The notes beneath the pieces are model-generated. The model made no database searches and was not told where the DNA came from. It saw only the letters and a list, made by a program, of their open reading frames with translations. Below, piece after piece: positions 3,801-63,747 of a stretch of DNA of 64,000 bases (positions are counted from its first letter, which is position 1; every line of letters begins with the position of its first letter). The DNA lies in the NCBI GenBank assembly GCA_023231475.1, contig JALJEE010002157.1:1-64000 (forward strand), read 5' to 3'. A program made the translations under genes and the position numbers. Source of the stretch: Seison nebaliae (lineage: Eukaryota).

Positions 3801-5815
3801 ATAAAAGATAAATTAGAACGAGATAAATTATCAGATAACGACAATGAAATTACTGAAGAATTATCTGATAATTTCGATATTGATAATAATTTTCAATTTT
3901 CTTCATCAAACAAATCCACATCATTGTCAGTACCAGAAACAGGACGTACTGAAGAAGATGGAAATATTCATGAAAATGATGATTTCTTTTCCGGAAAGAA
4001 GACGGAATCGTCTCTATCATTTCAGGATTCGACTCTCGGTTATAATAGACATTCGATGGAAGAATCGATCGTTGTTAAAGAAAAATCGGTGACTGATAAT
4101 TCCAAGTCGATAGTTGATCATGAAAAAATGATTGGTGATCATTTGAAATCATTTAGTGATCAAGATAAATCGATAATCGATTATAATCAAAAATCGATAG
4201 ATGAAAATTCAAATTACATAAAAGAAAAAATTTCAGAGAAAATAGAAGAAAGTGAAGATAATCTTTTAACTGATTATGATATCGATCCACTTGATAGTGC
4301 GTCTCATTCAAATTCATCATCTCCAAGAAAATTATTTGACACTTCCCAAAAAACAGTCGACGACCAATTGGAAGAGATAAATGAGAAGAAATTGGAGAAA
4401 AGATCGAAAGAGAATTTTGTAGATAATTTAGTGAACGAGATAATTGAGGAAGAAATTGAAAAATGTTTCAGAATTCGAGAAAAAAAATTGAATAAAATCG
4501 ATTCGGTGGCACAGAATGCTCAAAATGAGAACGATGACGAATTACCATCTTTAGATTTGAACGGAATAAATTTCTGTGATGAACTTACCATTCCAGGAAA
4601 TGATGAATTTATGATGGAGAATTTGAAAGAATTGGAACATGAACAAGTTAATTTTAAATTAAAATTTTTTTTAATTTTACTTTTTTTTCCAAACAATAGT
4701 ACGTCACAGAACAACTTGATATTTTCGAACAATTCTCCAGAAAGATATGGAAAAATAAAGATAAATTAGAAAATTATCTTTATTTGAAAAATGCGGAAGA
4801 TTTTGAAGAGAAATTTTCAATTCTCAAATCGATGGGAACGAATGATGAAATGATATTAAATTTTAATAAGAAATATGATCGTTTAAATGATTATTCGTCT
4901 ATTCTTACCAATTACATATTTCCACAAAGTTCATTTTATGTCATTCATCATTCTCAATTTCTTCTTTCTGTAGATTTTTGTAAATTGGAAGAAATGAAGC
5001 GAATTATTGTAATTCAAACGATTGATACATTGAAAATAGTTTTGTCTGATTTCTTTTATGCTATATTGGTCAATTGTTATGAGAGGAATAATTGTGAGAG
5101 GAAAGGCAAATGGATGAAATATTCTGTCACTTTTTGCCAATCTCACACTGCCAAATTTCCAAGATGTTACGACGATTTCTTCTACATTCTAGGAAAGAAT
5201 GTTTCAATTCATTAATTTTATTTAAAAATTCTTAATTTTTCTTTTCGTCTACAGTTCTTTTTAGAAATGAATCTCAATGACAATGAACCGATGTTATTGG
5301 AGCGAATGAAAATAAATGGAATGAAATCATCTTATCGAGTTTCGTTAACTCGAGGAATGATTCATGGGGGAATATGCACATTCTCTCTCTACACTAATTG
5401 GTCGTCGTTGAAACGAGATGATATTGTCGACGAGATTATTCTCGACAATTGTCGTAAAGACGAACCAAATTGGACGAATTATTACGAGGAAGAATGTCAA
5501 TTATTGAACGTCGCAACAAATGAAATATTTCGCCATTTAGTCGAACTTTGTACAGATGAATGTTTGAAAAGTTTCAGAAGGAAACATTCATCAAATCATT
5601 TACCGCAGAAAGGTTTCCATACGAAATTGCAGAAGATTAAGAATGAATTGATACATCATCGACGATCAATCTCCAACAAATTAAACGATGACGATGACAC
5701 ATTAAATGATATTAGTACACATGCCAACATTTGCATGAATTCATTCCGTCGACGATTATTTTATAATCATCTAATTTTTCCTTCGGATGAATTGCTCGAT
5801 TTGTCTATAAAATGA
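825..5815 (+). CDS. CEP350: Centrosomal protein CEP350-like (Ser-rich coiled coil, C-terminal DUF4378-type domain), 4 exons
   Basis: ORFs 774-4769, 4784-5215 and 5267-5815 join in frame via introns 4647-4699, 4929-4973 and 5201-5254. The C-terminus KRDDIVDEIILDNCRKDEPNWTNYYEEECQLLNVATNEIFRHLV resembles the CEP350 tail (KRDRVDHILVQELHEEEAQWVNYDEDE...GIFETLI). Start is ATG 825 or 906. Confidence 0.7.
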
Positions 5816-6639
5816 AAAACAATTTTTTTAATGATCTTAATAAAAGAAATTATTTTATTATAATTTATCAATCAATTCCTTTCTAATTTCTCTGTATATT
5901 TCAAAATTTCAAAAATAATTTTAAATATTTCTGCTCATTTCCTTCCCATTCATTAGTAATACGACGAATGACCTTTTAGAAATTAATAGGAAAATCAATC
6001 CTAATTCCATATAGTCATCCATATCTTCAATTTAGTTAGACATATTATTTTTACTATTCATTTCCACTAACATACCTCCTACGTATCACACGTTGATTGA
6101 CATTGACCTTCCTCTATTCGTCTCCGTCTAAAAAAAAGAAAAATTTGTGGGAATTGATGAATGACACTAGATTGTCTTATCATACTATTTATTACCGTCA
6201 TTTTTCGATTGTCAAATTTTCAAGCTAATCATAATTTCCGACCAACTATTCAAAATCATTAGAGAACAAGAATGGTCAGTTTCATCAATCACCAAATTCA
6301 TTTCGCCCAATTTCCTGTAGAATTCTCAAAAACTATTTTATTTAGGGGAAAAGTATAATGGAATGAAAAAAAATGATTGATGTCATTCCTAAAAAAACTT
6401 GAATAGCGAATGAATCATTGAATAATGGAAAAAAACAAAATTTTCAATTGGAAGTACTTTGGATACGTCACCCTTATTCCTGTGACAGGATTGTGTTATT
6501 CTTTTCGTACGAATAAATCGCTAAAAGATTTTTTTTAATTTGAACTGAAAAATCATTTTCCTCTGCAAAGCTTTTAAAGGAATCATAAAAACCGTCCAAG
6601 ATTTTTAGAGAATTGAAACAAAATTAGAATTACATAAAG

Positions 6640-6810
6640 GACCTGCGTAGCACAGTGGTCTACGCACGTTCCACGCATATTTGCGAAATAACGTACCCGA
6701 CATCTCCATAGAGTTATATTAGGCGTGTGTAGCGCAGTGGTCTATACAACAACGATGGGACACACGTCTCACGCAACGTAGAGATCTCTTACCACTGACC
6801 GTAGAGGAGG
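6640..6810. other. GC-rich structured island with tRNA A-box-like motifs (possible SINE/tRNA relic)
   Basis: Two direct copies of (G)YGTAGCRCAGTGGTCTAYRC matching the Pol III A box TRGCNNAGTGG, one related motif on the minus strand, and several hairpins. No B box or full cloverleaf. Confidence 0.35.
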
Positions 6811-61520: not shown

Positions 61521-61790
61521 ACAATCATGACAAGTTATCATCCGAAACAATCACTAACAATTGACGATGAGAACTATGAAGAAGATGTTAGTGACGACGA
61601 TGTAAAAGACGATGAGGAAAAAACATCAAATAAAAGAGAATTCCGACATACCCGTTACACAATTGGTGAAGGACGTCGAACAATGGCATCAATACGTCTT
61701 TCACAAACAGCTACCAATTTAAACAAGAGCGATCGACGCAGTTTCTACGAGAAAGTAAAGGGAACTTTCGATTCACTCCGGTCTGTTTAA
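60124..61790 (+). CDS. Divergent CH-like + bMERB (Rab-binding) coiled-coil protein, EHBP1/MICAL-L-like, 6 exons
   Basis: N-terminal LIKWI...NFVSFFRDG is CH-like. C-terminal QLEEEQLELTEKL...LMENFQDVINKRNTIIDLIEMER is bMERB-like. Five GTT..AG introns between 60721 and 61246 join the ORFs. Contains a long poly-Asp tract. Confidence 0.55.
61451..61520 (+). repeat. Coding (GAY)n repeat encoding a poly-Asp run
   Basis: gacgatgacgatgatgat... in frame within the last exon. Confidence 0.9.
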
Positions 61791-62106
61791 GGAAAAAGAG
61801 ACAAGTCTTTCCCACTTACTGGCAATCGAATGGTGACAAAGAAAAAGAGTCATGTACCAGAGACAGCCGAAATTGAGTGGCAACAATAAAAAATTTTAAT
61901 TTTCTTTCACTTTAACTTTCATGAAACATTAATAAAATTTGGTGATTCTCTTTTTTAGAATTTTCTTTTCCTCCTAAAAACAACAAATTAGGAAAACCGT
62001 TTTTCCTTTTAACCTCCCACTAATTCCCAGAAGAAAGTCTCCCTTTTCGTTCACCAATTTCCACAAATATTAAATGAATATAATTATTTTTTGAAAAATT
62101 TTAGTT

Positions 62107-63747
62107 ATGACTCACATTTATCTTTATTTACTTTTGTCGATCTTCGTGAAATTTCTCCATTCTATCGACATTTCGGGAGAAGGAAAAATCTTCGGCTCAG
62201 TTGGTCCATTTGATGAGATTGAAGAATTGACAAGTTCCCTCCACTTTCTCCAATGAAAACAAAACGGAATTTTTCCATTTTTAGAAATTCCAACATCCGA
62301 AGACTTTTTCACCAAATTCGTACCACAAGATCGTCTTTGTGTCTTTAAGAATGTCGTCGAAGAATGGAAATTAACCGACAAAGATTTATTAAAAGTTTCA
62401 CTTAAATTCTTTCTTGATTATTTCCGAATAACTTCTCGAAGTTATCTGAAGATGATAATAAACAGTATATGGTAGAAACGAAGAAAAAGGAGGTGAGGAG
62501 ACAAGAGATCCGTCGAATTTCTTTCCAACATTTTATCGAAACTTATAATAAAACTTCGTATTATCTGGTCGATCCAGTACCGAAATTCCTTCGGTTATTC
62601 ATTTTATATTTAAATTTTCATTTAAATGTAATTAATTTTTTAATTGATTGTGAATAGAACTCATGTTGAATTTCCTCGAATGTTCAATATACCTGTTAAT
62701 GAGAATACTCCGACAAATTCGATTTTTACTCAAATTGTATATTCTTATTTTAAAAAATTTTTTAAATTTTTTTAAAAGTTATTATGGATGACAAGTGGTG
62801 GAACGAAATCCGTTCCACATACTGATTCATATGGTAACGTCAATTGTGTCTATACGGGAATTAAACAATTCATTTTAATCGATAAGAGAAAATATCCGAA
62901 TGCAGGACTGGAATTTATCAATCGAATTAATGGCGCTTATAGTTCTTTAGATGTCGATCAGTTTTCAAATTTATTCATTCAATTTATCATCATCAATAAC
63001 CATTTTTTTTTTAAATTTTAAATTTTTTCTTTTAGTGTCAGTTTCGATGATTTCCCTATACTGAAAAATGTTAATTTGATTCGAGTCAACTTAACAGCTG
63101 GTGATTGTCTTTTTATTCCTCCATTTTTGTTCGTTTTTTATTATTTTCATTTTTTCATTTAAATTCCGTATTTGTCAGTATTCATCAAGTCAATTCATAT
63201 GGGAGGACGATGGCAACGAATTTCTGGTACGATCCAATCTCAGCATTGAAAGTGTCGTTAAAAATCAAAAATATGAAACGTGATGAAATTGATCGTGTGA
63301 ATAAGAAGAGATTTACTGTAGATGATTTCGGTTCAAATTTACCAGATTCTCCCAGTGAAGCGAATCATTTCTCAACATTCGAAGATTATTTGTTAGTTTG
63401 AATTAATTTAAATTTTATAGAAATTGAAATAGGAATATCGAGAGGGAATACAATCTTCCAAATCCAGTTACTATCGAAGACGTTATTAGGAAAGTTGAAG
63501 ATAAATATGAACAATCAGCCACTATTGAGATGCAACATTATATTCAAGAAGTCTTCGATTATTTAGATGTAGACAGTGATGGATATATCACTGAATCAGA
63601 TTCATCAATAGGAAAATATGTTAGAATTTCAATTCAAAAAATTTTTTAATATTTTTTCTTTAGAGTATGGAATGTGTGAACATGGTGGGACAAGACATGT
63701 ATAAAGTAGCAATGAAAGAGATTCAAAAAGCGGCAAAGAAAATTTAA
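62107..63747 (+). CDS. Secretory-pathway JmjC (cupin_8-type) 2OG/Fe oxygenase with C-terminal EF-hand, ~9 exons
   Basis: Signal peptide MTHIYLYLLLSIFVKFLHS, LWMTSGGTKSVPHTD (HxD), GIKQFILID, LTAGDCLFIPP, IHQVNS (distal His), NFWY, EF-hand loop FDYLDVDSDGYITESD. Stop TAA 63745-63747. Confidence 0.82.

Follow-up and report, generated by a model that had tools for sequence, protein, structure and literature searches.

Can an animal read most of its introns through 5′ splice sites (donors) that carry U, instead of a purine, at the third intron base? This question was raised by a window of 64,000 nucleotides (nt) from the genome of Seison nebaliae (GenBank assembly GCA_023231475.1, contig JALJEE010002157.1, positions 1 to 64,000 of the forward strand), for which a preliminary description had proposed that about nine in ten introns of nine genes begin with GTT. 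The window is AT-rich animal sequence (GC 26–35%), and one exon each of its LST8 and PKD genes was 100% identical to the NCBI proteins SNEBB_011126 and SNEBB_011127 of S. nebaliae (a tiny marine rotifer, Seisonidae). Contigs of two studies matched 13.4 kb of the window with three differences and one difference, respectively; because these contigs agree with the window, the donor words described here are not assembly errors. The sequencing runs covering the window carry its introns as DNA.

Dominance of GTT donors

We compiled 56 introns from nine genes (31 mapped from NCBI models, 21 from a spliced open reading frame (ORF) search, and four donors of a TCF/LEF-like gene placed by hand), with junctions predicted from reading frame, homology, and NCBI models, not from RNA reads. 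The donors comprised 51 GTT, three GTA, one GTG, and one GTC, leaving a purine at +3 in 4/56; the Wilson 95% interval of the GTT share was 81–96%, and bootstrapping by gene gave 80–97.5%. The proportion proposed earlier was thus recovered on the rebuilt set, and the exceptions were the same five (two GTAA, one GTAT, one GTGG, and one GTCT):

34208, minus strand, GTAAAT, TCF/LEF-like gene
33703, minus strand, GTAACT, TCF/LEF-like gene
62737, plus strand, GTATAT, JmjC gene
48314, plus strand, GTGGCT, PKD1-like gene
54437, plus strand, GTCTAG, PKD1-like gene

Two further statements of the preliminary description also held, namely that most donors lack +5G (45/56) and that the preceding exons often do not end in AG (48/56). 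All 11 donors that it cited show the GTT words given for them, on the strand given, but two of these (4929 and 39824) are insecure as introns.

The preliminary description had named the intronic background of T as one comparison on which its claim would stand or fall. T occupied 91% of +3 positions vs 52–57% in the intronic background, with p values of about 1e-8 or less. The individual backgrounds were 0.525 in intron interiors (binomial p 5e-10), 0.545 at positions +9 to +20 (p 3e-9), and 0.567 after non-donor intronic GTs (34/60; p 2e-8, Fisher p 2e-5); after every GT in the window it was 0.399 (p 1e-15). GTT was present in 29/31 introns of the NCBI models, a subset that alone gave p 2e-6, in 26/29 introns when the PKD gene was set aside, in 44/47 on the plus strand, and in 7/9 on the minus strand. 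These data confirm that the GTT excess is real and well above chance within the window. Extrapolating from nine genes with predicted junctions, GTT dominance is likely to be genome-wide.

Support for the predicted junctions

Spliced mapping of SNEBB_011126 (four introns) and SNEBB_011127 (27 introns) gave exact full-length translations, with a single GT-AG solution at 31/31 junctions when GC and AT-AC ends were also permitted; GT-AG ends were found in 56/56 introns. A donor-neutral spliced-ORF search, which required GT or GC and left positions +3 to +8 unscored, regained 4/4 introns of LST8, a gene excluded from its training, and 27/27 introns of PKD, which was part of the training. The same search yielded 21 usable introns in seven further genes, with one astacin acceptor (the third, now 26134) reset from a BMP1 alignment.

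The candidates at 4929 and 39824 were dropped before counting, as were the first two introns proposed near 39.7 kb in the small gene. The automatic TCF model was dropped too, since the alternative exons had led it to invent GC introns; the hand model took its place. Candidate 4929 is 45 nt long, stop-free, and in frame, and the model retained it as exon; for donor 39824, the search reached an acceptor only by making the intron 19 nt long. As both begin with GTT, leaving them out cannot inflate the GTT share. The genes and introns of the window are as follows:

825–5815, plus strand, large predicted protein gene (gene 1), introns 4647–4699 (GTTAAT) and 5201–5254 (GTTTCA)
4929–4973, plus strand, third candidate intron of gene 1 (GTTCAT), not forced by the frame and uncounted
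21991..22045, minus strand, intron of the forkhead gene, donor 22045 (GTTATT) within the forkhead domain
25941..26583, minus strand, astacin/BMP1-like gene, donors 26583 (GTTCCA), 26404 (GTTTTT), 26203 (GTTTTT), and 25991 (GTTCTT)
32718..34492, minus strand, TCF/LEF-like gene with HMG box, donors 34492 (GTTTTT), 34208 (GTAAAT), 33703 (GTAACT), and 32864 (GTTCAT)
39669–40410, plus strand, small gene, intron 40191–40258 (donor GTTCCA)
42250..43688, plus strand, LST8 (SNEBB_011126), four introns, all GTT, at 42250 (GTTAGT, 415 nt), 43211, 43426, and 43631
45271..56631, plus strand, introns of the PKD1-like gene (SNEBB_011127), 27 introns of 41–89 nt, 25 of them GTT
60124–61790, plus strand, acidic predicted protein gene, five introns (60721..61246), all GTT, two of them GTTAGT; 60721 is GTTCCA
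62234..63663, plus strand, JmjC (Cupin_8) and EF-hand gene, eight introns, seven GTT and one GTATAT (62737)

Shape of the donor signal and intron architecture

Relative to background, the favoured letters were −3C (2.1-fold), −2A (1.7-fold), −1G (1.9-fold), +3T (1.7-fold, near the ceiling), +4C (2.1-fold), and +5G (4.9-fold). The T peak was confined to +3 (91% vs 30–64% across +4 to +12, with 41% at +4 and 30% at +5). At +3, A was depleted about five-fold (3/56 vs an expected share of 0.29, p 1e-5), and C was depleted as well (1 of 52 pyrimidines vs 9.7 expected, p 3e-4). Position +4 showed A at background (0.98-fold), T at 0.75-fold (23/56), and C at 2.1-fold, and G was found at +5 in 11/56 donors and at +6 in 2/56 (0.9-fold). 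The word GTTAGT occurred in 6/51 GTT donors vs 0.32 expected (p 9e-7) and constitutes a strong class, and +4A and +5G were coupled (p 0.005); all 11 donors with +5G and all seven with +4A and +5G carried +3T. GTRAG was found in 0/56 donors, AG/GT in 8/56 (the slash marking the exon–intron boundary), and GTTTGT and GTTTG in 1/56 each. The donor is therefore shown to be the canonical word altered at +3 and relaxed at +4, with a positive preference specific to U.

Intron length had a median of 50.5 nt, with 51/56 introns of 100 nt or less, and intron interiors contained 4.5% G. Introns longer than 80 nt had 6.5 matches to canonical U1 vs 4.2 in shorter ones (p 3e-4, n = 6). None of eight branch-point patterns was clearly enriched (best p 0.02, uncorrected). 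The base at −3 of the 56 acceptors was T in 35, A in 11, C in 10, and G in none, and the pyrimidine tract was no stronger than the U-rich intron interior. U12-type introns were considered and rejected, as RTATCC appeared in no donor, the closest being GTATAT at 62737.

A possible change in U1 snRNA

The introns are predicted to be of the ordinary GT-AG spliceosomal type, and in the standard model the +3 base faces position 6 of U1 small nuclear RNA (snRNA). Position 5 of U1 faces +4 (PMC10581693), and +3 later faces G44 of U6, with which the usual +3 purine interacts weakly (PMC11732430). Because C is excluded at +3, A opposite +3 fits better than G (G44), and since the coupling of +4A and +5G is as expected for U1 A3-C4-U5, U1-type pairing appears to persist. 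A variant U1 or U6 snRNA, one of the two readings offered in the preliminary description, fits the donor statistics (a U-specific +3, with GTTAGT as the strong class). We tentatively favour, with slightly less than even confidence, a Seison U1 snRNA that would carry A, not pseudouridine, at position 6 and would so read GUU donors. The best partner of this variant would be CAG/GUUAGU instead of CAG/GUAAGU, its A6 pairing with U+3, and the expressed Seison U1 genes would not all start AUACUUACCUG. Relaxation at +4 would arise because U6 would be without N6-methyladenosine (m6A), if METTL16 is truly lost, and a length of about 50 nt together with G-poor, U-rich interiors would give the remaining information through intron definition. 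A canonical U1 copy may persist beside the variant and serve the CAG/GTAA donors of the TCF alternative exons. Mean duplex energy was −2.85 kcal/mol for the position-6-A U1, −1.99 kcal/mol for canonical U1, and −2.47 kcal/mol for an Entamoeba-type U1. Three GTT donors are used despite a GTA/GTG 4 nt downstream.

The METTL16 step draws on a published BUSCO table (PMC12256650), which covers 25 genomes and scores METTL16 as missing only in Seison; the remaining 24 have it (one fragmented), including both acanthocephalans. Among the 35 splicing-related rows listed, Seison has 28 complete, one fragmented, and six missing (METTL16, SNRNP40, LSm2, SPF45, ZMAT5, and USB1), and no U1 small nuclear ribonucleoprotein (snRNP) or LUC7 entries turned up in the table rows. 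SNRNP40, LSm2, and SPF45 are present in nearly all relatives, and their absence in Seison is either true loss or detection failure. Splicing is unmentioned in the accessible main text of that paper. The preliminary description had suggested checking for loss of METTL16 and SNRNP27: the former is missing in this table, but the latter is complete. Loss of METTL16 would explain +4A at background; the BUSCO call, from a published table with evident false negatives, is a lead.

Several observations weigh against a position-6 U1 variant and against METTL16 loss. By match count, an Entamoeba-type word scored 5.39/9 vs 5.27/9 for GTTAGT, so that no single variant is favoured, and neither U1 nor U6 snRNA was found in the window at the gathering threshold or at E up to 5. 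The variant, too, would pair weakly, as 29/56 donors have neither −1G nor +5G, and the two strongest donors, both of long introns, are CAG/GTAA, which suits canonical U1. Lineages with unusual donors mostly retain canonical snRNAs: in yeasts, U1 ACUUACC is invariant where found (227/230) and U6 ACAGA is kept in 240 species (PMC10581693), these cases of snRNA invariance concerning +4. For METTL16, the evidence of absence is a BUSCO miss, and 348 metazoan BUSCOs (36.5%) are missing from this genome. LSm2, an essential gene whose true loss is unlikely, is likewise scored "missing" only in Seison. SNRNP27 is scored complete although it is often lost with METTL16 in yeasts (PMC12256650, PMC10581693), and +4U (23/56) lies slightly below background, unlike in METTL16-less yeasts. 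When metagenomes were scanned for a U1 5′ end carrying A at position 6, there were 18 exact matches, but Rfam identified none as U1; the scan is uninformative on Seison.

Alternative explanations

An unlikely but still serious alternative leaves U1 and U6 canonical: +3U would be selected at the hand-over to U6, where, with A43 unmethylated, a G44-U wobble would extend the helix and diverged proteins would help. The weak contact of the +3 purine with G44 (PMC11732430), the listing of METTL16 as missing, the invariance of the snRNA boxes across yeasts (PMC10581693), and the fit of the TCF CAG/GTAA donors to canonical U1 all speak for this explanation, as do GUUGU and GUUG, given as examples of sites that worms acquire when METTL16 is mutated (PMC11347140). 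However, G44 pairs best with C, which is depleted at +3, and the predicted +4U is not enriched; moreover, canonical U1 would favour GTAAG, which is absent among the seven donors with +4A and +5G. Saccharomyces cerevisiae is not known to have METTL16. It nevertheless retains +3A in its donor GUAUGU (bioRxiv 2022.06.08.495308).

We consider it quite improbable that donor pairing has largely decayed, with introns recognized through their length and high U content while the first U after GT is read by a protein that binds U (TIA-1/Nam8-like, or changed U1C/LUC7). The short, G-poor introns, the little information at +4 and +6, the lack of a clear branch-point word, and the stronger donors on long introns are all consistent with it, but a U-tract would not be confined to +3, GTTAGT and +5G are still enriched, and decay to background predicts about 29% A at +3, where 5% was observed. 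The earlier proposal, in which length and AU content do most of the work of defining introns, agrees with the short, G-poor introns and the weak +4 to +6 positions, but it gives no account of +3.

A change of G44 to A in the ACAGA box of U6, pairing with U+3, is improbable to a somewhat greater degree. It is as good an account of the U-specific +3 as a change in U1, and an altered ACAGA box, such as is found in Cyanidioschyzon merolae (PMC10581693), could make METTL16 dispensable. Yet ACAGA is invariant in 240 fungi (PMC10581693) and kept in Entamoeba (bioRxiv 2022.06.08.495308), and the coupling of +4A and +5G is not explained by a U6 change alone.

It is very unlikely that the true junctions sit elsewhere and that the GTT pattern arises from modelling. 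The junctions do derive from frame, homology, and NCBI models, PKD was in the training set for its own recovery test, and a scan from 45 nt upstream of the donor to 30 nt before the acceptor found an in-phase GTA/GTG alternative for 11/51 GTT donors. The other 40/51 have none, however, and only two of the 51 have one within 15 nt. Models restricted to GTA/GTG shrank LST8 from 388 to 275 aa (29%) and PKD from 3468 to 2944 aa, the latter losing a segment homologous to a jellyfish relative (E 1.8e-14). LST8, besides its recovery when held out, aligned gap-free with the solved LST8 over three of its four junctions, and the forkhead Pfam profile was continuous over 22045 (positions 2–49 and 49–84 on two exons). 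Low-depth contigs about 83–89% identical to the JmjC gene (see below) gave a small independent check of junctions. In one of them, all five gaps and at least nine substitutions lay inside intron 63129–63178, the confinement of the gaps arguing against misplaced junctions, and GTTCG was kept at 63129 (no change among the rows listed); another matched exactly through +3 of donor 62961 and then ended. Retention of the donor in the diverged copies is thus a hint from two sites, among the rows listed. Three joints in one low-depth contig were rejected as splicing, since they do not coincide with predicted intron ends.

Two further ideas, that canonical U1 pairs one base out of register (GUUAAGU type) or that the introns are copies of a recent GTT-starting intron-making element, deserve almost no credence: the top two intron–intron scores (49 and 46) were slightly above the best of 20 shuffles (45), but a shift predicts +6G and is excluded by the G peak at +5 (11/56) and not +6 (2/56), and −1A is not enriched. 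An introner family was rejected as well (1275 pairs of 51 short introns, mean score 18.5 vs 17.1 shuffled; junction repeat >3 nt in 1/56).

Other features of the window

The alternative exons of the TCF/LEF-like gene (33422–34276, minus strand), which we take to be C-clamp exons, both end in CAG/GTAA, before introns of 787 and 282 nt. Either exon alone leaves the isoform open (963 and 1019 codons) and both together lead to stops, so the two exons are predicted to be mutually exclusive. In the small gene at 39669–40410, donor 39824 is compatible with an intron of 19 nt or, when placed by hand, with a long intron whose acceptor is poor. The PKD1-like gene (44935–56751, plus strand) is complete, encoding 3468 aa with PLAT, polycystin, and channel domains. 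No protein record for the JmjC exon was found among 45 candidates, and none of 124 candidate metagenome loci related to LST8 was confirmed.

A long, imperfect hairpin at 8935–9094 (−66.8 kcal/mol) lies where there is no long ORF and has a sub-threshold Rfam microRNA (miRNA) match; Seison miRNA hairpins are reported to be unusually long, and this one could be such a hairpin or a miniature inverted-repeat transposable element (MITE). A SNARE-domain fragment with a transmembrane end (57951–58148, plus strand) has a second copy of similar depth with 17 differences and two gaps in both runs, which is either the product of recent duplication or an allele that has diverged strongly. Between 53313 and 63609, scattered low-depth contigs (depth 2–5 vs 14–28) showed about 83–89% identity over coding parts. 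S. nebaliae is reported to have two diverged lineages (PMC8351084), and on the simplest reading these contigs appear to represent a second diverged Seison lineage mixed into the runs.

Comparison with known splicing systems

In nematodes and bdelloids, a considerable minority of donors begin with GTT. Bdelloid tubulin genes have 42–70 nt introns with a G/GT motif, for which the accessible text does not state the third base. Donors dominated by GTT were not found described for Seison, for rotifers, or for any other animal in the open literature, a scope that included PMC10125929, PMC12690905, PMC3033335, PMC1557818, PMC12553114, and PMC10599564 and excluded subscription-only surveys and bioRxiv supplements. 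The Seison genome paper and its supplements use "splice site" once (in the methods) and "snRNA" and "spliceosom" never.

The closest parallel, and a precedent for the favoured U1 change, is Entamoeba, in which +3U is compensated by U1 (ACAAAC) with U6 unchanged (bioRxiv 10.1101/2022.06.08.495308). Both have U at +3 in most introns of an AU-rich genome (51/56 in Seison). Entamoeba, however, is a protist with few introns, and its donor word hardly varies (88–90% GUUUGU, 97–98% GUUUG), whereas in the animal Seison a gene can contain as many as 27 introns, GTTTGT is rare (1/56), +4 is free, +5G stands at 20%, and GTTAGT is the strong class. The Saccharomycotina that changed from +4A to +4U with loss of METTL16/SNRNP27K (PMC10581693) and METTL16 mutants of Caenorhabditis elegans (PMC11347140) resemble Seison in the lack of a +4A preference; in these yeasts and worms the shift is at +4 with unchanged snRNAs, whereas in Seison +3 is changed and +4C, not +4U, is enriched. 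Large-scale alteration of the animal 5′ splice signal is also seen in Fritillaria borealis (PMC13326754) and the copepod Eurytemora affinis (PMC5714493), but these alter the terminal dinucleotides, whereas Seison retains GT-AG and alters the third base. Canonical animal U2-type donors follow AG/GURAG and fall into two classes (PMC11732430). Seison donors resemble them in their GT-AG ends, in the enrichment of −3C, −2A, −1G, and +5G in place, and in being stronger on longer introns, but differ in GTRAG (0/56) and AG/GT (8/56) vs 44% GURAG and 32% AG/GU in C. elegans (PMC11347140).

Implications of the donor pattern

The +3 purine and the U1 5′ end are regarded as fixed in animals, and the co-evolved donor/U1 cases found in the accessible literature are amoebozoans (Entamoeba, Mastigamoeba, and Physarum). 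The Seison pattern likely reflects splicing machinery altered to recognize another start signal, with a U1 change as its most likely cause. A broader claim, that Seison would be the first animal whose donor code has been rewritten, combining a position-6 U1 with loss of METTL16 and U6 m6A while bearing introns, splicing alternatively, and perhaps keeping a second canonical U1 for a small number of long, regulated introns, is possible but rather doubtful. Gene finders expecting GTRAG would mis-model Seison genes, as exemplified by the 29% loss of LST8 under forced GTA/GTG, and some reported gene loss may therefore be detection failure. Two short RNA genes of the Seison genome make it testable which of U1 and U6 determines the donor consensus. 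If METTL16 is truly gone, Seison would be a natural animal knockout of U6 methylation; and an animal in which thousands of weak donors had moved to +3U would demonstrate that the core donor code is open to rewriting with no prior loss of most introns.

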